The notes under the pieces were generated by a model. That model saw only the letters and a list, made by a program, of their open reading frames with translations. It searched no databases and was not told the origin of the DNA. This document shows positions 1 through 17,742 of a DNA stretch of 17,742 nucleotides, in pieces. The translations under genes were made by a program, and so were the position numbers. Positions within the stretch are counted from its first letter, which is position 1; every line of letters starts with the position of its first letter. Source of the stretch: Promethearchaeota archaeon. Lineage in GTDB: Archaea > Asgardarchaeota > Lokiarchaeia > Sigyniarchaeales > SOKP01. The stretch lies in NCBI GenBank assembly GCA_016930515.1, contig JAFGGO010000150.1:1-17742 (forward strand), read 5' to 3'.

Positions 1-56
1 AAGTTTTATAATTATAAGTAATAATAAAAATTAAATTTATGGAATTTCAGAATATC

Positions 57-839: not shown

Positions 840-961
840 TCATTTTTGATGTATTCCTATATACCTATCTAAATGAAACACCCTTTAAATTTTCTCTATA
901 ACAAACTTAAAAACTGATAAATTATTTTTTTTCTAAATAAAGTTATTTTCAAAAAATTATC

Positions 962-1180
962 ATGATTCAATTATTGTTCCAATTTGTCCCTACATCAACA
1001 CCATTATGGGTTCTTGCCTGGATATTTCTTGTTATTGGCATAATATCTTTGTTAGTTCTAATCTTATATACGAAATATGGAAGAGAAAGTTCTATCAAGC
1101 TATCTTTTATAACGATCGTGATTGCTTCATTTTTCTTGGGATTTGGATTGCATTTTCTCTTGTTAAATTTAGGATTGTAG
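962..1180 (+). CDS. Small membrane protein (2 predicted TM helices)
   Basis: 72 aa with two hydrophobic stretches (LWVLAWIFLVIGIISLLVLILY; LSFITIVIASFFLGFGLHFLLL) separated by a short charged loop. Confidence 0.7.
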   Translation: MIQLLFQFVPTSTPLWVLAWIFLVIGIISLLVLILYTKYGRESSIKLSFITIVIASFFLGFGLHFLLLNLGL

Positions 1181-1308
1181 AATTTTTAATAGAATTTTAT
1201 AAATTCAATAGCAAATAATTTATATTCTATTTAGTTTTAAATAAGATAGAATATATTTGTAAAAAACCTTACAAATATTTCCTACCTAAAAAAAATGGAG
1301 ATTCTAAT

Positions 1309-1758
1309 ATGATATTACAAGATTGGTCTGCTGTCTACTTAATATTAGGAATTGTAATTGGAACTATTATAGTCACGTTGATACTTTTCATAATAGTAAT
1401 GCTCTTGGAATCCAAAACAAAAGCTAAAGACAAGATATTTTTCATTGTTCTTATCGCGTTCCTTGCAGTTTTTCTCTTACCGATCGTTATGAACGCTATT
1501 GGCGCAGCTTTAGGTGCAATTGGTGATTTATTTGCAGCTATTAGAAATGTATTTGATCCAGGAGAGGGTAGAAATTACTTGGTTTATTTAGTCCCTGTGT
1601 TTGGATTTCTCATCTTACTCGTAATCAACAAGTATCTTCTTGATATTGAGTGGGATATGGCAACTTGGATTTCCCTAATATTACTATTTGTATTGTATAT
1701 AATGTTTTGCGTTGTACACGAATTATCCGATTTTTTCGTTCCAAATCCAATTGGATAA
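1309..1758 (+). CDS. Hypothetical integral membrane protein (~4 TM helices)
   Basis: 149 aa with four hydrophobic segments. GGAG SD-like motif upstream and a T-tract downstream. Confidence 0.8.
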   Translation: MILQDWSAVYLILGIVIGTIIVTLILFIIVMLLESKTKAKDKIFFIVLIAFLAVFLLPIVMNAIGAALGAIGDLFAAIRNVFDPGEGRNYLVYLVPVFGFLILLVINKYLLDIEWDMATWISLILLFVLYIMFCVVHELSDFFVPNPIG

Positions 1759-1771
1759 GAATATTTATTTA

Positions 1772-1787
1772 TCTTTTTTTTCTTTTT
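1772..1787 (+). terminator. Putative archaeal oligo-T terminator
   Basis: TCTTTTTTTTCTTTTT immediately after the 1309-1758 stop codon. Confidence 0.35.
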
Positions 1788-1908
1788 ACTATTTTGTGTT
1801 GTCACCAGTATATTTTTGTCAGTAACTCAGCAGGTTATTTTTGTCACAAAATGACACTTTTTTGGCGATTTTATCCGCGATATTGCCCAGATATCATTAC
1901 ACTTGATT

Positions 1909-1919
1909 AAAAAAAAAAA
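1909..1919 (-). terminator. Oligo-T tract downstream of the transposase fragment
   Basis: 11 A on + (T11 on -), about 20 nt after the stop codon at 1938. Confidence 0.35.
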
Positions 1920-1937
1920 GGATTTAGATATAAGATT

Positions 1938-2507
1938 TTACAGGTCTAGCGTTTTGAGCAAGACCCCGTTAAGATAGACCAGGAGGTTCTTTCCCCCGTT
2001 GATTTCTTGAACCTCCACGGTCTTTCCCGCCAACTTGTAATCGATGGTGTGATATTTACCCTTGTAACCGATAGTACCTGCGTTAGCTATTTTGCGCGTT
2101 TCTTTCCTCTTTCTTGTTGGCACGGTGTAAGCGCGGGATTGAACGAGGTGATCCCGATAATATATATCGATCTTGTCGTCGTATTCCACGATTTCGACTC
2201 TCACCCCCGAATAACCCGGAGGGAGGGCGTATTTCTGGGATTTATAAGAGATCTCGTTGGATTTATTGACTCGTCTTACCTCTACTTCGGCCATCCAACG
2301 TTTCCATTTTTCGCTCACCTCTAAGGGTTGGAAAACGCGCCATTCGGTGGCAAAGTACCGACTGCCAGGAGGCCCCTTTTCTGGCAGGCTGCGATGAGGC
2401 TTCTCCGTATTGTACCATTCCACCCATTTTTTAAATAAGGTGTTAAATTCGGCCAGGCTCCGAACGCCCCCTTCTTTTATTTCGTTTCGAGCCTCCAATA
2501 GAAACAC
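1938..2507 (-). pseudogene. C-terminal fragment of a DDE integrase/transposase (end of rve core plus Mu-transposase C-terminal-like beta domains)
   Basis: WVEWYNTEKPHRSL matches the YN..RPH.SL motif at the end of rve cores. It is followed by RRVNKSNEISYKSQKY and a second RKIANAGTIGYKGKYH repeat. The HTH and the D,D,E residues are missing, and there is an in-frame stop shortly upstream. Confidence 0.8.
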
Positions 2508-2765
2508 ACTTTGGTTTATAAATGAAGCGAACCTGGACGATATCGAGGATCAAGCTTGTCACTCAAACTATTGACGACGAGACGGCGAGCGTCTCAAACG
2601 GCTAAATAAAAAAGGTAGAAAAAGGACGATTTTTGTGACAATTTTCGTTGCTGACAACCCGTAGAAAGCAATTTATTTCGTGTCATTTTTTAATTGCTGA
2701 TCATAACTATTGATTTACTAAAATTTATATTTTAAAAATAAAGAAATACAAAAAATAATAAAAGC

Positions 2766-5700
2766 TTAGATCTTTTCTTTGAGTTTTAATCGAGGAGCAA
2801 GTCCAAGGGACATCATTTCTTGCAACAACAACTTGAAAGCGTAAGAACAGACAACTTTTGATATATTCGTCCCCTCCCCGCAAACAGGGCAGTATCTCTT
2901 GTCGCGATTTCGATCGTAAACTGCTAATAAACCACACTTCTCGCATATAAGTATTACGGTTCGATCGGACTCATCTAGTAATCTCTCTTTTAATAATAAA
3001 GCAGAGCCGTGGCCTACCAAGCAATCTCTCTCCATTTCCCCAAACCTGAGACCTCCTTCTCGCGCCCTACCTTCAGTTGGTTGTCGAGTTAATATTTGTA
3101 CAGGTCCTCGTGCTCGAGCGTGAAGTTTATCAGCAACTAAGTGGTATAGTTTTTGGTAGTAAATTGGTGCGCAGTATATTCCCGCCTCGTATTTTTCTCC
3201 GGTGATACCATTATACATGACTTCCCTGCCGTTAAACTCAAATCCCGCTTCTACGAGTTGTTCTTGAAGTTCCGTTATGTTTTTCCATTCAAACGCCGTG
3301 GCATCACCTAATTTTCCCGTGTTGCAAGCAATTTTTCCGCTGATTCCTTCAAATAATTGACCAAGCGTCATACGCGATGGCATTGCATGAGGATTTACTA
3401 TAATATCCGGAATAACACCTGAAGACGTGAATGGCATGTCCTCTTGGGGTTGAATTAATCCCAAAACACCCTTCTGTCCGTGTCTTGATGAGAATTTATC
3501 ACCAAGTTCGGGGATACGTAAGTCCCTGACTTTTATTTTAACTAATTTATTTCCATCTACCGTTTCGGAAATTATTACCGTATCAACAATTCCTTGTTCG
3601 TTATGGCGCATATTTTTAGAAGTCTCTCGCCTATTAGGTTGCATGAGTTCGAATTCTTCATATGACTTTATGAACCTCGGTGGTGAGGTCCTTCCTATTA
3701 AGACATCTCCTCCGTTTACAACTGTTTCAGGTTCAATTATTCCATCCACTTCTGATAATAAGCGATAAGATTCTGCTGATTTGAATCCTCTAACGCCTCT
3801 TTCAGGGATCTCGAATTTATCGACTTCTCCACCAGGATATTTCCTTTCTTCGGCGTCGTAAGTTCTAAAAAAATGACTTCTTGCAAGCCCTCGCTCGATC
3901 GAAGCCTTGTTGATGATGATAGCATCTTCAATATTGAATCCTTCGAAAGACATCATACCAATTATGAAATTTTGACCCGCTGGGCGTTGGTTGATTCCAA
4001 TAATTTCCATAGGACTCGTTTTAACTAGAGGTTGTTGTGGATAGTGAAGCGTGTGCCCCCGTGTATCTAATCTAAGGTGCATGTTTGCAGCGAACAGTCC
4101 CAATGCTTGTTTAACCATTCCTGCTTCGTAAGTGTTTCTTGGGGATTGATTGTGTTCTGGAAAAGGGATGATTGAAGCACATATACCAAGAATTGCCGCG
4201 GGAGATATTTCCAAGTGAGTGTGTTCTAGTATAATATCCTCTTCAAACATCGCAATGTAGGCGTTTTCTTCTTCTTCCGCATCGAGATATTCTATAATAC
4301 CTTTTCGCACCAAATCGGACCAATTATATTTTCCTTGTCTTAATTTTTCAACTATTTCGCTGGTAATAAGTGGTTTTGTGTTTTTTAACACAAATAAGGG
4401 CCTTGTAGCCCTTCCCGCGTCGCAATTAATTTGAATTTCTTTAGAATCAAAATAAAATCCAATATTTACATATTGACCTATTTCACCCTTTCTTCGTTTC
4501 TCTCTTAGTTGACGGATGAATGAATTGTGTTGCTGATGGATCCCCACTAATTTACCGTTTAAAAATACCTTTACTTTGTTTCCCTTGATATTTTTTACCT
4601 CGTTTATGGGGATTACACCCATCTGAATAATTATATCTTCAAGCAATCTTTCGTCCGCACCAATCGAAATGATAGATGCTAATCCTAAATTTTTAACCAA
4701 TCCACAATTAGGTCCTTCAGGCGTTTCTGCTGGACAAATCTTGCCCCATTGAGTGGGATGTAAATCTCTGGCTTCAAAATGAGGTTGACTCCTACTTAAT
4801 GGTGAAATAACTCTTCTCAAATGGCTTAATGTTCCAACATGATTCGTTCTATTCAGTAATTGGCTTACGCCTGCCTTTCCGCCAACCCAATTTCCCGTTG
4901 CAAGAGCGTGTCTAATTCTTTCGGTGATCACATCTGCTCTAACGGCGGTTTTAATATTAGGGGCCCTCCCCCTTACTGCTGTTCTTTCCAATTGGTATTT
5001 AATATCCTTGACTAAATTTAAAAAAGCCACGCGAAATAAGGATGTAAACAATTCTCCAGCTAATTTCAAGCGTTTATTTGCATAATGGTCTTTATCATCA
5101 GCTTCTCTAAAGCCTAATGCAAGTTCCATTACTTTTTGAGCCATCTGTCCTAAGTAATATGCTTTCTTTACTCGATCCTCTTCTCCATTCCCTATATGAG
5201 GTAAAAGATACCTATCTAATACCTGAAGAGCTCTTCTAATACGATAATCTTTTGTTTGACCTATGGCAACTCGTTTTCCTATATAGTCTAGAGCGTTTTG
5301 TTGAGATTTTTCAGGATCTTTTAAAACTTGAATTTCAGATGCAACATCTATTACTGGAATCAATTCTTTTTGAATTTCTTCGTTTTCTGAAATTGCTTCG
5401 AAGATCTCTCTATCTGAATGCAAACCTAAAGAACGCATTAAAATTGCTAAATGTATCTTACCTGGAACCGAAGGAAAGGAAACTCGTAGATTACCATCTT
5501 TTTTTCTTTCGATTGTAACTGGTGCTCTGAATCCACTTCTAGTAGAAAAAACTTTTGCTTGATGTGTCGCGCTAGAGCTCCTACTAGCTTCTTCTGCCAA
5601 AATTCTATTAGGGGCTAAGTCTTCTTGAGTAACCAGCACCCTTTCTGTACCATTGATGATGAAATACCCGCCAGGATCTAATGGATCTTCACCACGATTG

Positions 5701-6137
5701 ACTAATTCAGAATCGGAAAGGTTTTCTAAAGGACATCTACAGCTTTTTAACATTATCGGTATTTTACCTATGTAAATGTCTAATGTCTCTTCTTCTTCTT
5801 CTCTTTGGGTTCTTTCGTCGATAGTTATAGGAGTCATTTCTAAAACAATATCCGCAGCGTAACTTAATTCCCTTATTCTGGCCTCGATCGGAGTAATCTC
5901 CATGGTTGCTCCATCTGCCTCTCTAACTTTAGGCACACCTACCTTGATTTTCCCGAACTTTATCTTAAATCCTGGAATATCGGGAACGACTTCTGCAGAT
6001 TCATCAACGATTTCTTGCATCTCGAGTTCAATGAAATTATTATATGAATCTAAATGTTGACGTACTAAACCCTTTTCGTCAAAAAGACTTTTTAATATTG
6101 TCCATTTATCTTGGTTAGTTATTTTATCTGTGCTCAA
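2766..6137 (-). CDS. rpo2: DNA-directed RNA polymerase subunit Rpo2 (B), single unsplit chain
   Basis: 1123 aa with motifs GGYFIINGTERV, TLSHLRR, ETPEGPNCGLVKN, GDKFSSRHGQKG, GLRFGEMERD and a C-terminal CxxC...CxxC Zn finger. TTG start with AAGGT 9 nt upstream. Confidence 0.99.
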   Translation of the reverse strand: MSTDKITNQDKWTILKSLFDEKGLVRQHLDSYNNFIELEMQEIVDESAEVVPDIPGFKIKFGKIKVGVPKVREADGATMEITPIEARIRELSYAADIVLEMTPITIDERTQREEEEETLDIYIGKIPIMLKSCRCPLENLSDSELVNRGEDPLDPGGYFIINGTERVLVTQEDLAPNRILAEEASRSSSATHQAKVFSTRSGFRAPVTIERKKDGNLRVSFPSVPGKIHLAILMRSLGLHSDREIFEAISENEEIQKELIPVIDVASEIQVLKDPEKSQQNALDYIGKRVAIGQTKDYRIRRALQVLDRYLLPHIGNGEEDRVKKAYYLGQMAQKVMELALGFREADDKDHYANKRLKLAGELFTSLFRVAFLNLVKDIKYQLERTAVRGRAPNIKTAVRADVITERIRHALATGNWVGGKAGVSQLLNRTNHVGTLSHLRRVISPLSRSQPHFEARDLHPTQWGKICPAETPEGPNCGLVKNLGLASIISIGADERLLEDIIIQMGVIPINEVKNIKGNKVKVFLNGKLVGIHQQHNSFIRQLREKRRKGEIGQYVNIGFYFDSKEIQINCDAGRATRPLFVLKNTKPLITSEIVEKLRQGKYNWSDLVRKGIIEYLDAEEEENAYIAMFEEDIILEHTHLEISPAAILGICASIIPFPEHNQSPRNTYEAGMVKQALGLFAANMHLRLDTRGHTLHYPQQPLVKTSPMEIIGINQRPAGQNFIIGMMSFEGFNIEDAIIINKASIERGLARSHFFRTYDAEERKYPGGEVDKFEIPERGVRGFKSAESYRLLSEVDGIIEPETVVNGGDVLIGRTSPPRFIKSYEEFELMQPNRRETSKNMRHNEQGIVDTVIISETVDGNKLVKIKVRDLRIPELGDKFSSRHGQKGVLGLIQPQEDMPFTSSGVIPDIIVNPHAMPSRMTLGQLFEGISGKIACNTGKLGDATAFEWKNITELQEQLVEAGFEFNGREVMYNGITGEKYEAGIYCAPIYYQKLYHLVADKLHARARGPVQILTRQPTEGRAREGGLRFGEMERDCLVGHGSALLLKERLLDESDRTVILICEKCGLLAVYDRNRDKRYCPVCGEGTNISKVVCSYAFKLLLQEMMSLGLAPRLKLKEKI

Positions 6138-6225
6138 TTTAACCCGACCTTTATTTCAATTATTTTAAATAACACAATTGGATAGGGTGTTATATTTTTC
6201 ATTCTAAAGATTAATCAAGTTATTA

Positions 6226-6483
6226 TTATATCTTTTCTTTTTTTACATAGCGGTAATAAACCACTGAACTTACGGAAGTATCCGATTCTCGGATAATTTT
6301 TACAACGTCTCCTTCTTTTGCGCCTATGGCAATAGACACTGGATCTTTTTCGAACATTTGAGGTAAATCGTTAAGACCAATTTTATATTTTTTTAAAAGT
6401 TCCTTGGTTTCATCCTTGGTTAAGAGAATATGTTTAGGTACATACTTATGCAATAGGACATCAATTTTTTTTTTCTTTGTCAA
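6226..6483 (-). CDS. rpo5: DNA-directed RNA polymerase subunit Rpo5 (H)
   Basis: HKYVPKHILL...LPQMFEKDPV...GDVVKIIRES...YYRYV. Directly upstream of rpo2. TTG start. Confidence 0.98.
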   Translation of the reverse strand: MTKKKKIDVLLHKYVPKHILLTKDETKELLKKYKIGLNDLPQMFEKDPVSIAIGAKEGDVVKIIRESDTSVSSVVYYRYVKKEKI

Positions 6484-6607
6484 AGGAACAATCCTCTTTT
6501 CACATGAATTATTTGTATAAGAATACTTCCTATGTAAAAAGTTTTACGATAAATGATTATTCGTTATTTTAAGTAAATTTATAATGGTTCCATGATGTTT
6601 AGTGAAA

Positions 6608-7243
6608 TTATGATTCATGAAAACACTTAAATACCCAATACCCTCCCCTTTTACAAATGATATCAACATTTTGGGCATCATATAGGGTTTTTAGATTTTT
6701 TAATACAATATCGGCACCCATTTTTTTTCTTATAACAAATTGAAAAAAACCTCTATTCGTTAAAAAATCAGGTACTTGAGCGCATATATCCAAAAATTCT
6801 CTTCTTCCAAGTCTTATGGGGGGATTCATATATATCCCATCGAATCTCAAGTTATTAGCCTTAAATTTTTCGAAATAATTACTTTTCATTGCTCTTACAC
6901 GACCTTTATAATTCGAAATATTTGTTTTTATGTTTTCTTTTGTACACCATATAGCTCTTTTGTTTACATCGACTAAAAAAACCTTACTAGCTGTGGCTTC
7001 GTAACCTAAAACAATTCCGATTGGACCATAACCGCATCCAAGATCTAATAATATTGCTTCTTGCTCGGGAATCGTCATATATTCAATTAATAATTTCGTT
7101 CCATTATCTAGTTTTCTAAACGAAAAAACGCCAGATGCAGTCTTGAAAATATATAAATGCCCTCTTAAACTTTCTGCAACTGTCTGGATTTTTAATCTGG
7201 TATCTGGTAAGGAAGAATAATAATGTTGGTTTTCGTGCTTCAT
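6608..7243 (-). CDS. Class I SAM-dependent methyltransferase, RsmC/MTS-like (likely RNA m2G methyltransferase)
   Basis: GVFSFRKLDNGT, LDLGCGYGPIG (SAM binding) and NPP motif. Confidence 0.9.
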   Translation of the reverse strand: MKHENQHYYSSLPDTRLKIQTVAESLRGHLYIFKTASGVFSFRKLDNGTKLLIEYMTIPEQEAILLDLGCGYGPIGIVLGYEATASKVFLVDVNKRAIWCTKENIKTNISNYKGRVRAMKSNYFEKFKANNLRFDGIYMNPPIRLGRREFLDICAQVPDFLTNRGFFQFVIRKKMGADIVLKNLKTLYDAQNVDIICKRGGYWVFKCFHES

Positions 7244-7250
7244 TTTAACC

Positions 7251-8261
7251 TTATTTTTGTCTTTTTTCGTTCCAGCGAGGGTAAATTCCTCTTTCCATTA
7301 AAATTTTATTAGTTTTTGCCATAATTCCCGTTTTTGCCTTGAGAATAGCCAGAGCATCTTTATTAGCAACACCAAATCCTATCAGTTCTTTTTTAAGTGT
7401 CATATATGCAATTTCCATATTTGATTTGATTCTAGCGTCTATAAAGCAACAACCAGCAGCGGCAAGATCCGCACCGTGACAGAGAGCGTCAACGGCTGAA
7501 TCTCTAACATAGATTTTTGGCACATGTTCTACCATTTTTTCCATAGGAAAGATAATTTTTCGTAAATAATAGTCGTCTCCTTCTGTTCTATAAATTGTAT
7601 ATGCGTCTTTTAATGTTTGAAGCGTTGTCATATTGCTTTCCTCTTTAAAAAGGCCCACTCTAGTCCTTCTTAATTCAAGCATATGAGCACCACTACAAAG
7701 AGCTTCACCAATATCAAAACACAACTTTCTTATATATGTCCCGGCCTCGCATCCAACTCGAAAAAGAACCAAGTGATCTTTTATTTCTAGTAGTTTAATG
7801 TAATATATTTCCCTTGTTCTTAATTTTCTAACTACTGAAGATTTAATAGGTGGTCTTTGATATAATTTACCCGTGAAAAGAGTCAATATTTTTTCAATTC
7901 TTTTTTTAGGTTCAATAGAATGAAGATACATTACACAAACATATTCTTTTCCCGCAGTTAATAATGCCGAAAGGGCTCTTGTAGCTTTGCCAAGAGCGCA
8001 TGGTAGAATTCCAGTCACTTTTGGATCCAATGTTCCTCCATGTCCTGAATTTGGAACATCTAATATTTTTCGAACCCAAGAAACAACCTCGTGACTTGAG
8101 GGTCCGCTAACTTTATCTAAATTGATCACTCCTTTTTGAAGTAATGATTCAGTGGTTCTTTGATAGGGATCGGATCCATAATTCGGATTTGTAGATTCTT
8201 GTGACTTTATAAGTAATTGTTCGGATTCATCGGAGGGTAGTTTTAATTCTGAAATTTTCAT
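7251..8261 (-). CDS. cbf5: H/ACA RNA-guided pseudouridine synthase Cbf5 (TruB/dyskerin family, PUA domain)
   Basis: INLDKVSGPSSHEV, GHGGTLDP (catalytic Asp), YQRPP, CEAGTYIRKLC, ELRRTR and a C-terminal PUA domain. Confidence 0.98.
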   Translation of the reverse strand: MKISELKLPSDESEQLLIKSQESTNPNYGSDPYQRTTESLLQKGVINLDKVSGPSSHEVVSWVRKILDVPNSGHGGTLDPKVTGILPCALGKATRALSALLTAGKEYVCVMYLHSIEPKKRIEKILTLFTGKLYQRPPIKSSVVRKLRTREIYYIKLLEIKDHLVLFRVGCEAGTYIRKLCFDIGEALCSGAHMLELRRTRVGLFKEESNMTTLQTLKDAYTIYRTEGDDYYLRKIIFPMEKMVEHVPKIYVRDSAVDALCHGADLAAAGCCFIDARIKSNMEIAYMTLKKELIGFGVANKDALAILKAKTGIMAKTNKILMERGIYPRWNEKRQK

Positions 8262-8474
8262 TTTAAAGATTTTATTATATTACTTACTTATTTATAGGTA
8301 TACAAGGGCAATATATTTTTCTTCTATTAATATATGAAATCTAAAACATTCTAACAAAGGTTTATCCTTATGATTTCAAATGCTCTTGGTAAATATTCAA
8401 TTAGCAATTGATAAGATAGTTCTTGAATATCTTTATTTGCTTTAAAAAAATTTATGAGATGCAATATAAAATCA

Positions 8475-8498
8475 ATATTGTCAATTATATTGTCAATT
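8475..8498. repeat. Perfect 12-bp tandem repeat ATATTGTCAATT x2
   Basis: Copies at 8475-8486 and 8487-8498, in the intergenic gap between tRNA-Lys and cbf5. Confidence 0.6.
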
Positions 8499-8621
8499 TT
8501 ATGTTCATTCATTTTTTTACCATTAATAATTTATTGCTGTCACTAATTTTATTTTTCTTTATCCTTAAAAGTATATTCATTTTTTTTAATAACTTTTGTA
8601 TAAAGAGAAATGGTAAATTAA

Positions 8622-8725
8622 CGGGCCATGTGGGAATCGAACCCACGACCTTCAGGTTAAAAGCCTGCTGCGCTACCTGCTTGCACTTCAAGCGCTATTT
8701 GCGCTTAAATCTGCGCTAATGGCCC
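8622..8725 (-). tRNA. tRNA-Lys(UUU) with a 30-nt non-canonical D-loop intron (15/16; 8681-8710)
   Basis: Acceptor GGGCCAT/ATGGCCC-G73, D stem GCGC/GCGC, anticodon loop CTTTTAA, T arm GTGGG-TTCGATT-CCCAC. The intron ATTTAAGCGCAAATAGCGCTTGAAGTGCAA forms a 9-bp hairpin with central helix GCGC/GTGC and bulges AG|A and AA|G. CCA is not encoded. Confidence 0.93.
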
Positions 8726-8847
8726 TTATATCTTGAAATAGGGATCAAATCTGAATTAGCATTTCTATAAAATATATTATACAATTAAAATTTTTCCATA
8801 GGATATTGACAAAACAAGAGAAATGAATTCACAATAAAACTAATTTT

Positions 8848-9879
8848 TCAATCGATTTTATTGGGGCCCTTAAAGTGCTCGTAACCGTCGATATTAATAT
8901 TAATTTTTTTGTTATTCTTTAATAAAACAATATTATTACTGGTTGTTACCCTTCCAATTATATGCAAAGATAATTCTTGAAATTTGGGTAAATGCATCAT
9001 TCTTTCTAATTTTTCTTCAGGAATAGTAAATAAATGAATAAATTCTTCACCACCATTAAAAATAAGATTTTCAATGGGAACTCCAAATTCTTTGCTATAT
9101 TCACATGCTTCTTCGTCAAAAAGGTTGTGATCAAAGTAAATTTCAAACCCTAAGCCTGGATTTGAAACCAATAATTCCTTTAGGGAACGCGCAAGTCCAT
9201 CTGAGGAGTCGATACTAGCCGTGGCGAGGGAATTTTCTGCTAAATAATACGCTTCTTCTTCATGTATTGTTGGATTTAAAACGCTTTCAATGGATTTCTT
9301 GTATAAAACAAAATTTGATAAAGGTTGTTTTTTTATCAATAAAATATCTAGACCAACTCCAGTCAACCCAAATTTTCCATTAGCAACAAGAAAATCTCCT
9401 TTGGACATACCAGTCCTGTGAATTATATTATTTTTATTTCCATATCCTAATACGGTTGGATTAATTATCAACTCTCTTGTTTCGTTGATATCTCCACCAA
9501 TATAATGCAAATTATATTTTTTTGAACAATCAACCAATCCTTCGATAAGATTCTTAAAATCTCGCAAAACCATAGAATCAGGGAGTCCCAATGATATTAT
9601 GACTGCTCCTGGCTTAACGGCCTTAACAATAATATCACTCAGGTTAGCAATAATTACTTTCATGCCCATTTGGTAATAACTCATTTGTGGTGGTGCGTCA
9701 GTTGTTGATACAAACATGTCAGAATTAAGAACCACAATATTATCAGAAGGTATTAAGTCTTGGAAATAAAAAGAGTCGTCGCGAACTAGTTTTTCCCCAG
9801 TTTTTTCAAAAATGATCTCTTCAATAATATCAATTAATTGAGATTCTCCAAAAGTGTCAAGCTTCTTCGTTTCGCTCAT
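8848..9879 (-). CDS. thiL: Thiamine-monophosphate kinase
   Basis: GESQLID, RDDS, NSDMFV, ANLSDI, IGGDIN, DSSDGL and GGEEF motifs of the ThiL/PurM-like family. Confidence 0.93.
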   Translation of the reverse strand: MSETKKLDTFGESQLIDIIEEIIFEKTGEKLVRDDSFYFQDLIPSDNIVVLNSDMFVSTTDAPPQMSYYQMGMKVIIANLSDIIVKAVKPGAVIISLGLPDSMVLRDFKNLIEGLVDCSKKYNLHYIGGDINETRELIINPTVLGYGNKNNIIHRTGMSKGDFLVANGKFGLTGVGLDILLIKKQPLSNFVLYKKSIESVLNPTIHEEEAYYLAENSLATASIDSSDGLARSLKELLVSNPGLGFEIYFDHNLFDEEACEYSKEFGVPIENLIFNGGEEFIHLFTIPEEKLERMMHLPKFQELSLHIIGRVTTSNNIVLLKNNKKININIDGYEHFKGPNKID

Positions 9880-9933
9880 AGGATAAGATTTATAATTTCT
9901 TTAAAATTAATAAATATTAACATTAAACTAGAT

Positions 9934-10046
9934 GCCTCTGTGGCTTAGCGGTATAGAGTAATTCTCCGTAAGAGCGATTGATTCGTAATCAGAATATACT
10001 CTGAAGAAACATCAATCGGTCGTGGGTTCAAATCCCACCAGGGGCT
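9934..10046 (+). tRNA. tRNA-Thr(CGU) with two introns: 18 nt at 21/22 (9954-9971) and 23 nt at canonical 37/38 (9988-10010)
   Basis: Acceptor GCCTCTG/CAGGGGC-T73. Spliced D arm GCTT-AGCGGTA-GAGC, anticodon arm ATTGA-TTCGTAA-TCAAT, T arm GTGGG-TTCAAAT-CCCAC. Both inserts fold as BHB-type motifs (GCGG/CCGT; TTCG/AGAA with a TCAGA/TCTGA inner helix). Confidence 0.92.
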
Positions 10047-10149
10047 CTAAATATGATCTTAAATTCTATCCTTATTACAAGATTCCTCATTCAATTGTTC
10101 CATTAAAATATCAAAAACATCTTTAGATTGAAAAAGAAATTAGATTAAT

Positions 10150-11166
10150 TTAGATATCTTCAGTAACGACAAACCTTTTTATTATCTGTAAGGCAAGCAT
10201 TTTAAAAGCATCATTAATATTTTCACCTGTCTTGGCTGATGTTTCAATATAGGAAAGGCCTAATTTTTCTGCCATTTCTTGACCTTGTTCCCTGCTAACT
10301 TCTCTATCGCCTTCTAAATCAATCTTATTACCAACCAAGATTAATGATATATTCGGTGAGGCCGTTTTTATTTCTTTATGCCATCCTTCAAGGTTTTCAA
10401 ATGTTTCGTTCCTAGTTACATCGTATACTAATATTCCGGCTTCTGCGTTTTCTACATATGTCATTCTCACGCGCTTGAATTGTGATTGTCCTGCTAGGTC
10501 CCAAATAACAAAGCGTACTTTGCTACTCAATCCATCAAATTCACATTCCTTCTTCATTATTGATGTTCCAATTGTAGATTTGTAATCAGTTTCGTATTTC
10601 CCTTCTACAAACCTATGAACCATGCTAGTTTTACCAACGCCTCCCTCTCCTCCTAAAATCAATTTATATGCGTATTCTCCAGATTGTATTTTAATACGCT
10701 GGAGCGTATCTTTTTTACGAGAAATATCCTTGCCCTCTCCCCTACTTATAATTTTTGGGATGACAGGACTCACCGTCCGACCATCAAATATTCGAGCAAT
10801 CTTCTCAGCAGTTAAGTAGGCGTAAGGAAATACAGGATCTATCATTGCTACTGCGTCTAATACGGTTACAAAAACCGCATCTGGTCCAGCTTCGCAAAAA
10901 ATAAGCCGATAATCTTCAGTGTCAAATGTACCCGTACCAAAAGCCCCTGAACTAAACTCTTTAGTGATTCTTGTTAAAACAGGCTCCACTAAGGCGCTTA
11001 CGCCACCAACTATTTCCTCGTCAACGGATTTTTGAGAATCCTTTCCTGAAATCGAGTCTAATATTAATCCTTCTCTATTAACAACGATCACGGCTATTAA
11101 ATCCTTACCTACTTCTTGAACATACCATTGAAGCAACGCGGTGAGTTTTTTTCTATCGACAGACAC
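10150..11166 (-). CDS. N-terminal Roadblock/LC7 (MglB-like) domain fused to a Rab-like small GTPase
   Basis: The N-terminal DLIAVIVVNREGLILDS...LIFCEAGPDAVFVTVLD fits the roadblock pattern. GTPase motifs: G1 GEGGVGKT, G2 YKSTIG, G3 WDLAGQ, LVYDVT, G4 NKID, G5 ETSAK. No C-terminal Cys prenylation motif. GTG start. Confidence 0.92.
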   Translation of the reverse strand: MSVDRKKLTALLQWYVQEVGKDLIAVIVVNREGLILDSISGKDSQKSVDEEIVGGVSALVEPVLTRITKEFSSGAFGTGTFDTEDYRLIFCEAGPDAVFVTVLDAVAMIDPVFPYAYLTAEKIARIFDGRTVSPVIPKIISRGEGKDISRKKDTLQRIKIQSGEYAYKLILGGEGGVGKTSMVHRFVEGKYETDYKSTIGTSIMKKECEFDGLSSKVRFVIWDLAGQSQFKRVRMTYVENAEAGILVYDVTRNETFENLEGWHKEIKTASPNISLILVGNKIDLEGDREVSREQGQEMAEKLGLSYIETSAKTGENINDAFKMLALQIIKRFVVTEDI

Positions 11167-11291
11167 GAGTTTTAATGACCTTATTTGGTAATCAAGATGA
11201 ACTTGAAATTGATTTATTCTACCTTAAGATGATAATCTTGGAATATAAATTTTATTAAATAAATAAGACTTAAATCTGGAATATTATAATC

Positions 11292-11909
11292 TCATAAAAA
11301 AAGCATGAAAGCAGTAGTGAAGCCTGTGAGAAAGCATCCAATGATGCCTATTATTAATAAAATGATTTGTGTCCTAAGGTTAGAATGAGATTTGTTGAAA
11401 ATGATCCAAAGACTAAGAACAATGTCTAAAATCGATAAAAACGAACCAATCGAAAGAATAAAGTACAATGATTTATCAAATGGTTCTGAAATTGAATTTA
11501 TATCTGAAAAATTGTAAACTTTACTTGGATCAATCACACTACTATTCATAAAAAGACTAAAAATTAATCTATCTGGAATCGGATCCAATAATATTACCAA
11601 AAGAAGAGTGAAATATGTAAAGATAATTCCAAACCCGATATTAATATAAAAAACAGCTAATATTATCCCACTTTTTCTAAATTTTTCCCCATTTTTCTTA
11701 TACTGAGGACTATATTGCTTTTCCTTGAAATATGGGGATATCCTGCTCCTATATATGGTCAAAACGCCAAGAATAATTAAAATTGCTCCAAAAATATATC
11801 GAATACTTATAAAAAAGATGGATATGAAGGTGTTAAATGAAATACTAAACCCCTCCACTCCTTTCATAAACTCATCAAAAGGATTAGTCGTACTTTGGAA
11901 AATATCCAT
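11292..11909 (-). CDS. Hypothetical integral membrane protein (~4 TM helices)
   Basis: 205 aa with multiple hydrophobic helices, co-directional with and upstream of the GTPase fusion. Confidence 0.8.
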   Translation of the reverse strand: MDIFQSTTNPFDEFMKGVEGFSISFNTFISIFFISIRYIFGAILIILGVLTIYRSRISPYFKEKQYSPQYKKNGEKFRKSGIILAVFYINIGFGIIFTYFTLLLVILLDPIPDRLIFSLFMNSSVIDPSKVYNFSDINSISEPFDKSLYFILSIGSFLSILDIVLSLWIIFNKSHSNLRTQIILLIIGIIGCFLTGFTTAFMLFL

Positions 11910-12127
11910 CCATATTTCATTTGTTTTAAACTATAAAAAGTCTACATAATCTGAATAGAAACAGAATATTCTTGAGAAGAAATCTACAATGATTTTAAAT
12001 CCTTTTTCGTTTTTAGAAAGCAAAAAATTTTAAACTTTCAGAAATTTATTTCAAATACATTTGGTGATTAAGAATTTCTGTTTAAATTACTGATTTTTCT
12101 ACCAAAAAATTATCAGTAATATAAAAT

Positions 12128-12299
12128 GCAGGAGTTGCCAAGATGCAGATCCTTTAGAATCGCATGGGAACCTGGTCTACGGCGCTGGACCGAGGCTCCA
12201 GAAAACTCTTATTAAATAAGGGTTGGACAATCTCATAGGAGTTCGTGGGTTCGAAGTTAAACAAGCGTGCCTTGTTTGAGGAAATTCCCACCTCCTGCA
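12128..12299 (+). tRNA. tRNA-Leu(GAG) with three non-canonical introns: 15/16 (12143-12170), ~43/44 (12202-12230), 59/60 (12256-12285)
   Basis: Acceptor GCAGGAG/CTCCTGC-A73. Spliced D region GCCAAGCCTGGTCTACGGC, anticodon arm CTGGA-CCGAGGC-TCCAG, class II variable arm CTC-ATAG-GAG, T arm GTGGG-TTCGAAT-CCCAC. Each insert is a hairpin with BHB-like geometry. The boundary of intron 2 is uncertain by ±1 nt. Confidence 0.9.
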
Positions 12300-12430
12300 T
12301 TTATTTTAAAACACATGTTCTAAAAATTGTTATTCTTGGTTTAATTAAGATTTTTAAATCAAATTAAATAAGGAAGTATTAAATTATAAAAGAATTTCTC
12401 TATAATTAGCACTTAAAAAGGTAGATATCG

Positions 12431-13600
12431 ATTAGATATACAAGCGATTATTTTCCACTATCACATGTAAAGGCGCTTAATTTTAGTCGGAAGATCTTAA
12501 CAGATGGAGAAATTAAGGCTCTTAATTATATTCAGAACGAACTTGCTAATGAAAACATAAAAAATAATGCAGAAATCTTCAAGTGGAAATATCATTTCTT
12601 TAGCAGATCGTTATTTTTAGCTATAAATTCCATAATTGTGACTTTTTTTTTATTAACTCTGATATTTAAGTTTTTCCCACTAAAAATTATCTTGAGTAGT
12701 ATAATTTTTATATTATATTTGTTTCTATTGCTCAATAGTGGAAAAATTTCCTTGCCTTTTGGAAAAGAAAAGGAATCCAGAAATATTATTGGAGAGATAA
12801 ACGCTAAACATAAAACTTTCAAAAGACCACTATTTATATTTATTTCCTTTTATGGTTCAACAATAAAAAAATACAAACCTCTATATTCAAACATTATAAA
12901 TTCTTTTATTCTATTTTTATTACTCGATTATTTATTGTTAATTTTTATTGCTCATATTTTATCTTATTTATCATCATTATTTGAAATATTTTTAATTGTG
13001 AGTATAGAAATTTTTTCAATTATTTCAATACTTAATCGTGAGAGAGATGAATCCCAAGATTTTCCTAATCATTCATCAGGAGCTGCTGTTCTATTAGAAA
13101 TAGCTAAAACATTGAGAAAAGATGTTTTAAATAACATTGATGTAATTTTTTTATGGTGTGGTGGGAAAATTACTGGAAATAGGGGATTAAAAGCATTTTT
13201 AGATAGACATGTTATTGATATTTATCAAGAATACGACCTTAATCGATTTTATTGCTTGAATATAGATAAAGTCGGTGAAAATATCGGACTTTTTAATATT
13301 AAGAGAATAAAAAAGAAAGAATTAGGTGAATTGGATGTTATAATAGAAGCGACTGCAAAAAATATGAAGTTTCCCCTGTCCAATTTCACATCCATAACTT
13401 CAAACCTGAGTAATCCTGCCATAATTAACTCCTTTACAAAAAGAATAAAAAAATATCCTCACACATCTACTTTAACCTCCAACGAGAAAACCAGACCTTT
13501 TAATTACATAAAAGAGAGTTCTACTTATGAAGAGCAATTAAATAATTGCGTTAGGCTGAGTTTAAACATTTTAGAAAGCCTCGATATGAGAGTAAAATAA
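12431..13600 (+). CDS. Membrane-embedded M28 peptidase-fold protein, apparently catalytically degenerate
   Basis: M28-like segments RNIIGEI, NHSSGAAVLLEIAK, DVIFLWCGG and LNID, with two TM hairpins. The frame is open from 12425 with a typical M28 N-terminus (HVKALNFSRKILTDGEIKALNYIQNEL). The first ATG/GTG/TTG is only at 12638, so the ATT start at 12431 is inferred. Confidence 0.72.
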   Translation: MRYTSDYFPLSHVKALNFSRKILTDGEIKALNYIQNELANENIKNNAEIFKWKYHFFSRSLFLAINSIIVTFFLLTLIFKFFPLKIILSSIIFILYLFLLLNSGKISLPFGKEKESRNIIGEINAKHKTFKRPLFIFISFYGSTIKKYKPLYSNIINSFILFLLLDYLLLIFIAHILSYLSSLFEIFLIVSIEIFSIISILNRERDESQDFPNHSSGAAVLLEIAKTLRKDVLNNIDVIFLWCGGKITGNRGLKAFLDRHVIDIYQEYDLNRFYCLNIDKVGENIGLFNIKRIKKKELGELDVIIEATAKNMKFPLSNFTSITSNLSNPAIINSFTKRIKKYPHTSTLTSNEKTRPFNYIKESSTYEEQLNNCVRLSLNILESLDMRVK

Positions 13601-13604
13601 TAAT

Positions 13605-16600
13605 TTAGAAAAAATCACTGAGTTTTTGTTGCTTAATTTTAGGATTATTTGTTAAGCTCTGGACATACTCGTTAATTAATTCCATTCGTTGTAAGGTGTA
13701 TTGGTCTAAATTGAATTGAGTGCACAAAATTATTGCTCGTTTGATGTATTTTTCAATTCCCCCCCTATTAACGGTTAAAATAATTCGATTACCGCAACGG
13801 GGACACTTATTTCCGTTTGAAATGGGTGGACGCCTGAATTTTGAGTTGCATTTGATGCATCGAAAAGATTGAACCGAAAATTTTCTGAGATTTCCTGCAA
13901 TATCTGGAGTGAAATGAGTTGAAAGTATTTTTTTTGCTACATTTTTAGAATCTACTGCATTAATAATCTTAGCGAGATGTAATTGAGCTGTAATTTTATC
14001 GTCCATAGACTCATAGGTTTTATACGCTGTCTTGGTTGGGCCTTCATTGATATTTTCCGTTGGAATATTAAATCCTGATTGATATTGCTCCGGCGTTCCT
14101 AAGTGATTTTTTATTATACCCATGATATTGTCTATTTCTGAAGGTTGAGAGTATTTTTGTGTCGCTTCGTAAAATTCTAATGGATATTTAAAGAGAGTAT
14201 CCACATTATGAGCTTCTGCGTCTATCTCGTTAGGATCTAATAATGTCGAAATAACTAAGGTGGCGTCCATCCTTCCACCGATCTTGCTTGGTAAATAAAA
14301 TCTCGAGAAGTTCAACAACGGATCAAGGAGAAGCATCACTCCATCTTCGTCTCCGTCGCAATTTCTCCTTTTAGCGGCGTGCCAGAATGGATGGGCGTAG
14401 ATTGATCGCGCTGGAGAAAATCCAATTATTCTTCCAATAATGCCTGCGCTTGTGTGAGGTGCCAATCCCACGACGAGATGTCCAACTAAATCGTCTCGTA
14501 CAGAGACCTTATAAAAAGGTTCCAACTTGTAGAAGTACTCGAGTTCATCATCTATGAATTTTGCTACTTTTAAAAGGTATTCAGCGCAGTCATCTGATAA
14601 CACTATATCTTGAACCTTGAGTTCTACTATTTGATTTCCGTTTTCAAGAGTTTTTCCATCGTAAGCTTTGTTGTATCCCAATTCGTTTAATTTTTTAACG
14701 CTTACGGAAATCTCGTTTGGTTTAAAATGAGTTAATGGGATATCGGTTGCATCGTATCGAATCTCTGCTGTTTTATAGACAAGAACACCATTTTTTGCTC
14801 TTAGAATCCCTTTTTCAATCGGTTCGGGTACTTTAAATTCGTTTGTCAAACCAATTATCCCTTTGAAATTTTCGGGCATTCTCAATTTTAATGATTTTAA
14901 TTTGGAAAAGATATGGTTTTTTAGGTTGAATCGGGCCTCTAAAGAAGTTGAAAGTCGTTCAGAACATTGGGGACATTCGTGGAGATTTACCTGAAATAGA
15001 TAAGTTTTATTTTTTGTCCTGCATTTTGGACAAATTTTCTTCAATTCTGTGAAAGTTCCACATTTAGGGCAATTGTTAAAAATAGAAACATAATCACATT
15101 TTGGACATTGTTTGCGAGCCACATCAATGACTATTCTATTTGGTAATTCTTCCTTTTTTTTTCTTAATTCGTTTTTCTTTTTGCCCTTATCTCCATCGGA
15201 ATCCTCCAATCTTAATTCAATGGCTTTTTCAAATAACCTAGAACTCCCAACTTTGTCGCTTAGCGGAAACAAAGAATGAACTCCCTTCATGCTCTTTCTT
15301 TCAGATTTTTCTGGACGACCCATTCGAGTCCCCATAAAATAAGGTGCCTTATTTTTAACTTGAATTGAAGATAGGGTTAAAAAATAGGAAAAGACATCAG
15401 TCTCCCCCTCTTGTGATATGATAACTTCATCATTCAAATTAAATATTGCCGTGTAAATGAAATTCATGGCCTTACTAAAATTTATTTTTCCTTCCTTCAC
15501 CTTATGAGGCACAAATGCTTTTTCTAAAATTTTTTTAATTGAATCCTCGTTATCTAATGCAATCTTGCCACTTGACTTGATATAATTACTTAGAAACGCT
15601 TTTCTTAATTTCTTAATTTCTTCTACGGTTAAATTCCCCCAAAAATCCGTATATGCTGGATGGAGTGGAATTCTAAAAATTTTCGAGATTCGTATCGCTT
15701 CACTTGCCGTGGGAATGTTTTGAAACGGATTTTCGATGTATTTCAAAACATCAGAATTTGAATCGTTATCTTTTATTGAGGATTCTAATTCTAAAGACCA
15801 CCATTCTTCGACATATCCTGAAGGAACCAATTTATGGTTGTTTTCTGCAAATTCTCCAAATCCAAATAAAATATCCCCTAAAAAAAGGATCTCCTCGATT
15901 TCAGGAAAGCTCCTCCTTCCTGTAATGTAATCTGTTACTCTTACTACATTGCCGTTTTTTAGTTTCACGATAGGTGGTTCAATCGCATCAACTGGGCAAA
16001 TACTTGTGCTTTTTCCAGGTCTTTCTATTCTTAATTGAGTCCCAATTGCGACAAAATCGTCTAAAATTGCCATTGTTGCGGGATGCATTCCTCCTGCTGC
16101 CAAACCCGTGTTTCTGGATTTTCCGTACCTTATTCGATGACCTCCTATTCGTGAAGGATGGCTAAACACTGGCCTTCCAGCGATGATATCTGCTACAAAC
16201 TTAGGATTGGGAGGAATTTTTTCAGGCATTGACTGTTCTTTTTCTTGACTCTCCTCTTCCTTTAAAGCGATTTTTTTCAAATCTAAGAGCCAATCCCATC
16301 CTTCCAAATTCATATTCTTGGTAATTTTCATTAACTTCGATGCTTTTGAGAGTATTCCGTCATTTAAAACAAGACATGCCCCGCCCCGAATTTTGTTTGT
16401 CTCTACGCGAGGTAAATTTCGAAAAGCTGAAACTTCCTCGTCTTCCGTAGAATCTCCATTAATTTCAATTGGTAAATTCTTGACAGCGAATCTTAATTCG
16501 TCGTTAGAAGAAGGGTATTGTAGATGAATTTTTCTGTCATATAGCTTGACCTCTTCGACATACCTGCCGATTTCTGCTTCAGTAGCTTCGTATTTCGGAA

Positions 16601-17111
16601 TATGGGTTTTTCGTCTCACATAATCCGCAATCAATACACATAATGCTTGAACTGTTCCTCCGGCAGCTCTGATTGGTCCAGCGAAATATAGTGAGAGATA
16701 TTTATTTCCTGATTGGTCTTCTCGAACTTTAATTTTTGAAATCCCCTCAAGTGGTGCGCTTACAACCCCCATAGTCTTAATTGCAAGCCCTACTCTAATG
16801 GCCCTTTCAACTCTATCGTTTAGAGAATCAATATTTCCTACTTTCCTGTCTAAAATGTCCGATACTACTTGAAAAACGATTTCATCCTCGTTCTTTCCCT
16901 TTTTTTTATAATTTCTTATGATTTCTGCAACCCCATCGGGTCCAACTAGCTTTTCGACCCTGCCTGCTAAGTCCTTAGCTTGTGGGGATTCAACATATAA
17001 TTCGGGATCTAATCCTTGTTCTCGGGCATTTGTTGCAATTTCATAGCATTCATTAACCCTTTCTTGAATGGTTCTGAAATATTGTTCCATATCTTTGCTC
17101 ATTTCTACCAA
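13605..17111 (-). CDS. polC: DNA polymerase D large (catalytic) subunit DP2
   Basis: AGPIRAAGGT, RIRYGKSRNTG, RMGRPEK, catalytic RRNCDGDED, three CxxC Zn modules and a C-terminal PIP box QQKLSDFF. No intein. Start is TTG 17111 or ATG 17102. Confidence 0.99.
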   Translation of the reverse strand: MVEMSKDMEQYFRTIQERVNECYEIATNAREQGLDPELYVESPQAKDLAGRVEKLVGPDGVAEIIRNYKKKGKNEDEIVFQVVSDILDRKVGNIDSLNDRVERAIRVGLAIKTMGVVSAPLEGISKIKVREDQSGNKYLSLYFAGPIRAAGGTVQALCVLIADYVRRKTHIPKYEATEAEIGRYVEEVKLYDRKIHLQYPSSNDELRFAVKNLPIEINGDSTEDEEVSAFRNLPRVETNKIRGGACLVLNDGILSKASKLMKITKNMNLEGWDWLLDLKKIALKEEESQEKEQSMPEKIPPNPKFVADIIAGRPVFSHPSRIGGHRIRYGKSRNTGLAAGGMHPATMAILDDFVAIGTQLRIERPGKSTSICPVDAIEPPIVKLKNGNVVRVTDYITGRRSFPEIEEILFLGDILFGFGEFAENNHKLVPSGYVEEWWSLELESSIKDNDSNSDVLKYIENPFQNIPTASEAIRISKIFRIPLHPAYTDFWGNLTVEEIKKLRKAFLSNYIKSSGKIALDNEDSIKKILEKAFVPHKVKEGKINFSKAMNFIYTAIFNLNDEVIISQEGETDVFSYFLTLSSIQVKNKAPYFMGTRMGRPEKSERKSMKGVHSLFPLSDKVGSSRLFEKAIELRLEDSDGDKGKKKNELRKKKEELPNRIVIDVARKQCPKCDYVSIFNNCPKCGTFTELKKICPKCRTKNKTYLFQVNLHECPQCSERLSTSLEARFNLKNHIFSKLKSLKLRMPENFKGIIGLTNEFKVPEPIEKGILRAKNGVLVYKTAEIRYDATDIPLTHFKPNEISVSVKKLNELGYNKAYDGKTLENGNQIVELKVQDIVLSDDCAEYLLKVAKFIDDELEYFYKLEPFYKVSVRDDLVGHLVVGLAPHTSAGIIGRIIGFSPARSIYAHPFWHAAKRRNCDGDEDGVMLLLDPLLNFSRFYLPSKIGGRMDATLVISTLLDPNEIDAEAHNVDTLFKYPLEFYEATQKYSQPSEIDNIMGIIKNHLGTPEQYQSGFNIPTENINEGPTKTAYKTYESMDDKITAQLHLAKIINAVDSKNVAKKILSTHFTPDIAGNLRKFSVQSFRCIKCNSKFRRPPISNGNKCPRCGNRIILTVNRGGIEKYIKRAIILCTQFNLDQYTLQRMELINEYVQSLTNNPKIKQQKLSDFF

Positions 17112-17346
17112 AAGGTTATATCACTTTTTTAAGATGGGATTATGCTTTCAAGCTTTGAAATATGATCTTTATTATCATATGGCAATTAAATGATCTTGTT
17201 GACTTATTAATAGCTAGAGTTTATGAATTTATAAATGAAAAAGGTTGGACTAATATTAACTTGAATTTAATTAGTTTAGTTTATATGCCTAATTTAAAAA
17301 ATAAAATTGAGAGATCAACCCAAACATCAATATTGAGGAATTCACG

Positions 17347-17742
17347 ATGCAAAAAGTCTTAATAAAACAAAGAATACCAGAAAAATTAGAACTAAAGCTT
17401 GTCAATGAAATAAGGAATTATCTATGTAGTAAGGGAGAAATCAAGGCCTGTCTCCTTCATAAACTTTACAAGTACTTATTTAATAAGGGAATAATTCTTG
17501 ACAATAATAAAGAAATGCTCATTATTACATTAATTAGGATGTTTGAACAAGGAGAGATCGAAATAATTATTCCTAGACCATACACTCTACTATGGAAAAA
17601 AAGAAAATTTAATAAATTAAAATTTTTACAATCTGGGTATTATTACTTTAGGGCATATCGAGAATGGCCAGAAAAGATCGCTCCCCCCCTAAATTATTTA
17701 TTCGATTCAAGAAAATTTAATTTGAATGATGAGAAGAAAAAC
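17347..17742 (+). CDS. Hypothetical protein, truncated by the window end (possible winged-helix-like N-terminus)
   Basis: ATG at 17347 after GAGGA, open for 132 codons to the window end (MQKVLIKQRIPEKLELKLVNEIRNYL...). Absent from the ORF track because no stop codon is reached. Confidence 0.65.
   Translation, partial: MQKVLIKQRIPEKLELKLVNEIRNYLCSKGEIKACLLHKLYKYLFNKGIILDNNKEMLIITLIRMFEQGEIEIIIPRPYTLLWKKRKFNKLKFLQSGYYYFRAYREWPEKIAPPLNYLFDSRKFNLNDEKKN

Follow-up and report, generated by a model that had tools for sequence, protein, structure and literature searches.

How can three tRNA genes that standard tools miss or misfold be working genes, and what kind of splicing system would they need? 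The question arises from a stretch of 17,742 nucleotides (contig JAFGGO010000150.1 of assembly GCA_016930515.1, positions 1 to 17,742 of the forward strand; hereafter the window) from an archaeon of the Promethearchaeota. An initial annotation of the window had proposed that every tRNA gene in it is interrupted, by six introns at five positions, and that the lineage has a permissive splicing system. We find it probable (roughly 0.86) that the genes for tRNA-Lys, tRNA-Thr and tRNA-Leu are functional, single-copy genes of a Loki-type Asgard archaeon, interrupted by archaeal introns that would be spliced by proteins.

Three interrupted tRNA genes in the window

We searched the window with ARAGORN at default settings, with the Rfam tRNA model and with our own intron-aware cloverleaf search, and verified all coordinates letter by letter. 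Default ARAGORN detected no tRNA in the window. The Rfam model matched tRNA-Thr, leaving two inserts of 19 and 25 nucleotides unaligned, and gave only a truncated, mis-paired hit to tRNA-Lys on the minus strand. The intron-aware search recovered three genes, for tRNA-Lys(UUU), tRNA-Thr(CGU) and tRNA-Leu(GAG), all of them interrupted, and beyond these no window candidate exceeded the null score. The cloverleafs of the three tRNAs are restored only once six inserts are removed. The intron-enabled mode of ARAGORN was also tried and was rejected because it forces an insert into the anticodon loop and consequently reports wrong anticodons.

The tRNA-Lys(UUU) gene (8622-8725, minus strand) spans 104 nucleotides and would be 74 nucleotides long after splicing, with exon 1 at 8711-8725 and exon 2 at 8622-8680. 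Its 30-nucleotide intron (8681-8710, minus strand) lies in the D-loop, between tRNA positions 15 and 16 (15/16). The tRNA-Thr(CGU) gene (9934-10046, plus strand) spans 113 nucleotides, 72 of which would remain after splicing; it has an 18-nucleotide intron at 21/22, the boundary of D-loop and D-stem (9954-9971), and a 23-nucleotide intron at 37/38, the canonical site (9988-10010), both on the plus strand. The tRNA-Leu(GAG) gene (12128-12299, plus strand) is a class II gene of 172 nucleotides that would be spliced to 85. It carries three introns on the plus strand: 28 nucleotides at 15/16 in the D-loop (12143-12170), 29 nucleotides at 43/44, where the anticodon stem meets the variable arm (12202-12230), and 30 nucleotides at 59/60 in the T-loop (12256-12285). 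Each of the anticodons UUU, CGU and GAG was found once among the 35 tRNA genes of the genome census described below, and we therefore regard the window genes as the probable working copies.

The anticodon loop of tRNA-Leu(GAG) (12190-12196) reads CCGAGGC and thus has a C at position 33, where U is near-universal in tRNA. This C33 is common to many relatives, intron-free 85-nucleotide genes included, while other relatives have U33. It could be an edited position or a tolerated variant.

A relaxed splicing motif at every intron

In archaeal tRNA precursors the splice sites lie in a motif known as bulge-helix-bulge (BHB). The geometry that we used pairs four exon bases ending two before the 5' splice site with four intron bases ending two before the 3' splice site to give the central helix H, and each strand is cut after nucleotide 2 of a 3-nucleotide bulge; the flanking exon and intron helices are called h and h'. 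With this geometry a BHB motif is formed at all six window introns, of the relaxed and not the strict class. The central helix is fully paired (4/4) in two introns, the other four have a terminal mismatch (3/4), and every intron has at least one flanking helix.

In the Lys intron at 15/16, which is of HBh' type, H is 4/4 with one G:U pair, h is 0 and h' comprises 9 base pairs (bp). The Thr intron at 21/22 likewise has an H of 4/4 with one G:U pair and an h of 0, with an h' of 4, and the Thr intron at 37/38 is of hBHBh' type, with an H of 3/4 (terminal G:A), an h of 7 and an h' of 5. Among the Leu introns, that at 15/16 combines an H of 3/4 (terminal G:G) with an h of 0 and an h' of 3, that at 43/44 an H of 3/4 (terminal C:C) with an h and an h' of 2 each, and that at 59/60, again hBHBh', an H of 3/4 (terminal G:G) with an h of 5 and an h' of 9. 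The hairpins inside the first two of these are built from 3 + 3 bp and 2 + 6 bp, respectively, each with a 1-nucleotide bulge between the two segments. The three D-arm introns lack an exon helix, but because each has a good intron-internal helix they belong to the classical relaxed HBh' type and are not motif-less inserts. The geometry thus reproduces the description given in the initial annotation in full: six introns with their positions and lengths, four mismatches, two helices with a G:U pair and no outer helix in the D arm.

To estimate how often such motifs arise by chance, we sampled the genome at 400,000 random positions, taking lengths of 18-30 nucleotides. An H of at least 3 together with a flanking helix of at least 2 bp occurs at 4.7% of random positions and at six of six window junctions, which is therefore far beyond chance. 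The rate for the 'canonical' class, in which H is 4/4 and a flanking helix is present, is 0.68%. The classes to which the Lys 15/16, Thr 37/38 and Leu 59/60 introns belong (H 4/4 with an h' of at least 7, or H of at least 3 with 5 bp or more in each of h and h') have a rate of ~2e-5. The boundaries of the window introns were fixed without the motif, by orthologous genes, and are hence independent of the BHB scoring.

Orthologues fix the intron boundaries and reveal rapid turnover

The Leu gene was compared by BLAST with 60 genomes of the same family and the intron-aware finder was then run on the fetched loci. The spliced Leu (85 nucleotides), Lys (74 nucleotides) and Thr variants match intron-free orthologues save for a few substitutions, and for tRNA-Lys the exons of the 74-nucleotide intron-free genes show no difference at all. 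An intron-free 85-nucleotide tRNA-Leu(GAG) gene with almost identical exons is present in a genome of the same genus (G033) and in several other genera. Two further genomes of the genus, G026 and G006, have the 15/16 and 43/44 introns and lack the 59/60 intron, and other relatives have a variable-arm intron alone or a 59/60 intron alone. All three Leu junctions are therefore fixed, at the sites given in the initial annotation, by orthologues that are intron-free or differently interrupted. In G026 and G006 the orthologous 15/16 introns show a compensatory change from C-G to T-A, and the hairpin of the 43/44 intron covaries as well. At the 59/60 site, three other genomes have introns of 30-35 nucleotides that are unrelated in sequence.

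For tRNA-Lys, at least nine fetched loci carry a 74-nucleotide intron-free gene, eight loci from seven relatives in three genera have a 15/16 intron of 29-30 nucleotides, and six loci have an intron of 28-32 nucleotides at 59/60 instead of 15/16. When seven orthologous Lys introns are compared, pairing holds in 100% of cells for the central helix and in 86% for the intron hairpin, three pairs of which are altered on both sides; structures slid by 1-3 columns as a control pair in 22-55% of cells. Given that these are seven related sequences, we take the covariation as support for the structure and not as proof.

The tRNA-Thr gene lies ~1.3 kb upstream of tRNA-Leu in relatives too. Its intron sets there comprise 37/38 only, 21/22 with 37/38, or ~29/30 with 58/59, and in orthologues that lack the 37/38 intron the anticodon loop is contiguous. 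An 18-nucleotide intron in this part of the D arm is also found in two genomes of the same genus, G039 (where it was placed at 21/22) and G026, and is absent from G033. Introns at one and the same site in different genera show no sequence relation. Taken together, the orthologues indicate that the window inserts are real intervening sequences that turn over within the genus.

Non-canonical introns across the genome

We extended the search to the whole genome (4.0 Mb, 35% G+C, in an assembly that is 94% complete) with our own finder, a C program that threads an intron-aware cloverleaf from a T-arm anchor and allows one intron per region. Genes were accepted at a score of at least 63, the maximum on the reversed genome being 61. 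Anchoring on GC islands was tried as a way to find tRNAs and was discarded as too unspecific, with 3270 islands. The finder recovered 35 tRNA genes, a count that is a lower bound, compared with 27 tRNA matches for Rfam, and allowing one acceptor mismatch added no further genes. Introns interrupt 25 of the 35 genes (71%), and 10 are intronless. One intron is present in 19 genes, two in 5 and three in 1, which gives 32 introns or 0.91 per gene, compared with 2.0 in the window. A tRNA-Asp and a tRNA-Ile(UAU) gene, each with two introns, are among those recovered. The proposal that every tRNA is interrupted thus holds for the window (3/3) but not for the genome.

Only 10 of the 32 introns are at the canonical 37/38 site. 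The 22 non-canonical introns are distributed over the D-loop (9), the T-loop at 58/59 or 59/60 (5), 43/44 or the variable region (4), the anticodon loop (2) and the D-stem junctions (2). At least one of them is present in 17 of the 35 genes, which differs from a genome in which most other tRNAs are intronless or have canonical introns alone. The genome-wide intron proliferation suggested earlier is borne out by these numbers, although the window represents the rich end of the distribution. The exon helix is shorter than 2 bp in 14 of the 22 non-canonical introns, a motif statistic that is partly circular because the finder itself uses the BHB motif.

A 36th gene, for tRNA-Trp on contig C18, was threaded by hand. 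It has a strong 29-nucleotide intron at 29/30 and a second insert of ~31 nucleotides, with approximate boundaries, near 37/38.

Most of the non-canonical introns fall into a sharp size class: 17 of the 22 are 28-30 nucleotides long and 13 are exactly 30, whereas the canonical introns range from 17 to 56 nucleotides. They have a common layout, which consists of 1 nucleotide, a hairpin whose stem reaches ~9 bp and whose loop has ~4-5 nucleotides, the 4-nucleotide helix strand and 2 nucleotides. The two intron-side bulge bases are A-rich, and there is no shared sequence. In pairwise global alignments of the 22 introns, the best scores exceed the scores of shuffled sequences only slightly and reveal no recognisable family, in keeping with the earlier description of the introns as unrelated in sequence.

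A predicted broad-specificity endonuclease

Two EndA-like genes are present in the genome, at L001:1453-2046 (minus strand, 197 amino acids) and L002:1435-2040 (minus strand, 201 amino acids), and the product of each has an N-terminal and a catalytic-type domain, with matches to PF02778 and PF01974. The 197-residue protein can be aligned from end to end with the alpha chain, the catalytic one, of Aeropyrum pernix EndA (3P1Z_B, E 5.6e-35). It retains the catalytic Tyr, His and Lys, the His being in the column that was mutated in 3AJV, and in its L1/CSL loop, which is of crenarchaeal type, the residues GINKPR align without gaps to DVEKPR of 3P1Z_B, which places a lysine on A. pernix K44 (counted in the alignment). 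It also matches the catalytic domains of Sen34 and Sen2. The 201-residue protein is closest to the EndA of Methanocaldococcus jannaschii and has no His in the His125 column, as would be expected for a structural beta subunit. The pair is thus predicted to have the (alpha-beta)2 arrangement. The subunit architecture that the initial annotation had singled out for checking, including a specificity loop, is therefore in place, and together with the many non-canonical introns it supports, at the level of sequence, a permissive splicing system. The alpha subunit is 75-88% identical to proteins of metagenome-assembled genomes (MAGs) of the Promethearchaeota or Promethearchaeia, including Loki_b31 and AMARA bins, and the host is a Loki-type Asgard archaeon of the Promethearchaeota.

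We propose that, in the precursor RNA, each intron and the adjoining exon would fold into a BHB motif in which two 3-nucleotide bulges flank a 4-bp helix. At 37/38 and in the T-loop the outer helix would come from the tRNA's own stem (hBHBh'), while in the D-arm, where there is no exon helix, the intron hairpin would support the motif instead (HBh'). A heterotetrameric (alpha-beta)2 EndA with the L1/CSL loop lysine on its alpha subunit could then cut these relaxed motifs, both the cleavage and the specificity being inferred, and the exons would presumably be joined by an RtcB-type ligase. Introns are gained and lost quickly: within the genus and the family, orthologues have no intron or are interrupted elsewhere. 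The introns therefore look like tolerated insertions, able to remain at any site that allows a cleavable motif.

Several observations weigh against this interpretation. The central helices of four of the six window introns are mismatched, and the Leu 43/44 intron has a weak motif (H 3/4, with an h and an h' of 2 each). The C33 of tRNA-Leu(GAG) might point to a defective gene, but its conservation in many relatives, intron-free genes included, speaks against this. The census is incomplete and its motif statistics are in part circular, with motif-free boundaries established for the six window introns only. Eleven expected anticodons were not found by the finder (UGC, CCG, GUU, UUC, CUC, GAU, CAA, UAG, two further CAU, and GAA), and blastn-short searches for them with mature tRNAs of relatives returned known genes only; these 11 tRNAs are either unassembled or more heavily disrupted. 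Finally, RtcB (PF01139) was not found in the 94%-complete assembly. Because 38 of the 40 family members searched have RtcB, we read this non-detection as most likely due to an assembly gap.

Alternative origins and roles of the inserts

The non-canonical introns could instead be copies of one mobile family that transposes between tRNA genes, as has been proposed for Thermoproteales. Such a family would account for the sharp length class and the common layout, and the pairwise scores do lie slightly above those of shuffled sequences. The best of these scores are nevertheless small and do not define a sequence family, and bases forced by the motif explain at least part of the similarity, the GAAC that faces GTTC in both 58/59 introns being one example. 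Sequence similarity is likewise lacking between introns that occupy one site in different genera, and a 2026 census of Asgard tRNA genes found that cross-isotype families make up 1.5% in Asgard compared with 28% in Thermoproteales (10.64898/2026.10.13.758758, section 2.5). Close intron relatives in different tRNA types of one genome, as seen in Thermoproteales, were not found here, and we consider a mobile family unlikely.

It has also been suggested, in the literature on disrupted archaeal tRNA genes and in the initial annotation, that such introns are kept because they prevent mobile elements from using tRNA genes as integration (att) sites. The non-canonical introns do break up the D and T arms. 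However, the 3' half of the interrupted tRNA-Trp gene on contig C18 is found again ~4.4 kb away: the T arm and 3' acceptor strand occur twice, at minus-strand indices ~25339 and ~29704, with an identical run of ten bases in front of each. Such a duplication is the usual footprint of an element that has integrated at the 3' exon of the interrupted gene, and therefore, here at least, the introns did not stop the 3' exon from serving as a target. Intron-free forms of the same genes also serve close relatives well, and the 2026 census reported intron gains without a link to mobile elements (10.64898/2026.10.13.758758, section 2.5). Contradicted by at least this one case, protection from integration finds no support in our data and seems an even less likely explanation than a mobile family.

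Least probable of all is that the inserts are unspliced and the three genes are pseudogenes with small insertions, their working copies being in the unassembled 6% of the genome: the 11 absent anticodons, which indicate an incomplete assembly, and the C33 of tRNA-Leu would fit, but the exons are conserved relative to orthologues without introns, the positions of the inserts coincide exactly with junctions that form a BHB motif, the inserts covary, several genera retain these genes in interrupted form, and 71% of the detected tRNA genes would have to be pseudogenes.

Relation to known tRNA splicing systems

Protein-spliced introns thus remain the preferred reading, and they have close precedents. 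Cleavage of non-canonical introns is confined to (alpha-beta)2 and epsilon2 EndA enzymes that have a specific loop, and the (alpha-beta)2 type is conserved in the TACK and Asgard superphyla (Kaneta 2018, PMC5829648). The same study mapped (alpha-beta)2 EndA with the L1 loop, together with disrupted tRNA genes, to Asgard archaea, one Lokiarchaeota bin included. In Atabeyarchaeia and Freyarchaeia, 92-95% of tRNA genes are interrupted (Valentin-Alvarado 2024, PMC11291895). A bioRxiv preprint of October 2026 presented a motif-free census of 90 Asgard genomes (10.64898/2026.10.13.758758). Inserts numbered 2.2 per gene in its three focal families, compared with 0.91 for other Asgard families, and D-arm introns were those that tRNAscan-SE misses. 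Gains were repeated and independent, inserts were enriched at BHB junctions, two EndA paralogues were found in 44 of 60 genomes, and there was no evidence of copying between tRNA genes or of mobile elements. Heavily interrupted Asgard tRNA genes with a broad-specificity enzyme are therefore already published, and the window is a clean, ordinary example of them.

The genome resembles those of Atabeyarchaeia and Freyarchaeia/Jordiarchaeia in its Asgard host, in having several short introns per gene, many of them in the D-arm, T-arm and variable region, in D-arm introns that escape standard tools, and in BHB junctions, repeated gains and two EndA paralogues. Unlike the focal families, it belongs to a Loki-type family and averages ~0.9 introns per gene, with 71% of its tRNA genes interrupted, compared with 2.2 and 92-97%; its ~0.9 is near the 0.91 of the 'other Asgard families' (10.64898/2026.10.13.758758). 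Its non-canonical introns cluster at 28-30 nucleotides, whereas the published median is 22-23 nucleotides.

With Thermoproteales (A. pernix EndA, PDB 3P1Z/3AJV; PMC5829648) the genome shares HBh' motifs at D-arm and other sites, a fraction of ~70% of genes interrupted and a heterotetramer-type EndA with the L1/CSL loop lysine. It differs in that related intron families across tRNA types are absent and in that the lineage is mesophile-like and AT-rich (35% G+C). Its beta subunit, a full-length protein with two domains, is nearer to M. jannaschii EndA than to the beta chains of Crenarchaea.

Like eukaryotic TSEN, in which Sen2 and Sen34 are catalytic and Sen15 and Sen54 structural, the predicted enzyme would be a heteromer of catalytic and non-catalytic paralogues of the same fold. 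TSEN, however, measures from the mature domain and cuts essentially at 37/38 only, whereas this genome has many intron positions and recognition would be local, through the BHB motif. The intron load and diversity of Asgard archaea, together with their heteromeric endonuclease, bear on the evolution of TSEN and of protein-based RNA splicing. The relevance to TSEN origins noted in the initial annotation stands to this extent, but both the link to the origin of TSEN and the joint occurrence of the L1 loop and disrupted tRNA genes in Asgard archaea were already in print (PMC5829648). What the window adds is a well-resolved Loki-type case, with motif-free junctions and gain and loss within a genus, that leaves the published picture unchanged. 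Its practical use is as a test case for annotation, since all three genes escape ARAGORN at default settings and Rfam detects one and a half.

A tRNA-type insert in rtcB and further observations

In four relatives the rtcB gene is split within its GGVGYDINCG motif by a 29-nucleotide insert, the removal of which restores one open frame. The insert is located at L179:83-111 in G013, on L180 (minus strand) in G036, at L181:90-118 in G032 and at L182:79-107 in G017. It forms a perfect BHB motif, with an H of 4/4 and an h' of 9, and has the same layout as the tRNA introns. The mRNA for the RtcB ligase in these relatives therefore itself appears to require tRNA-type splicing. We found no report of BHB introns in Asgard protein genes in the literature searched. 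Hairpin mini-introns of ~29-30 nucleotides may thus be one genome-wide class that also occurs in protein genes, including the rtcB of relatives, and their fixed size would then reflect a structural ruler in the apparatus for splicing or insertion; we offer this tentatively, as a possibility with the balance somewhat against it. Should it be correct, tRNA splicing would double as mRNA splicing in the closest prokaryotic relatives of eukaryotes.

Elsewhere in the window, two plus-strand frames within 1309-1910 overlap (1309-1758 and 1650-1910) and would be joined if an insert of 3k+2 nucleotides were removed. We looked for a convincing BHB motif or mRNA mini-intron that would join these two frames and found none, and a frameshift or chance is more likely. 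In the same-genus MAG G033, a 2-kb stretch of contig C415 (1024-2935) contains at least eight tRNA genes that are compact and free of introns, some of them non-archaeal in appearance, and this array is possibly of viral origin or a contaminant.

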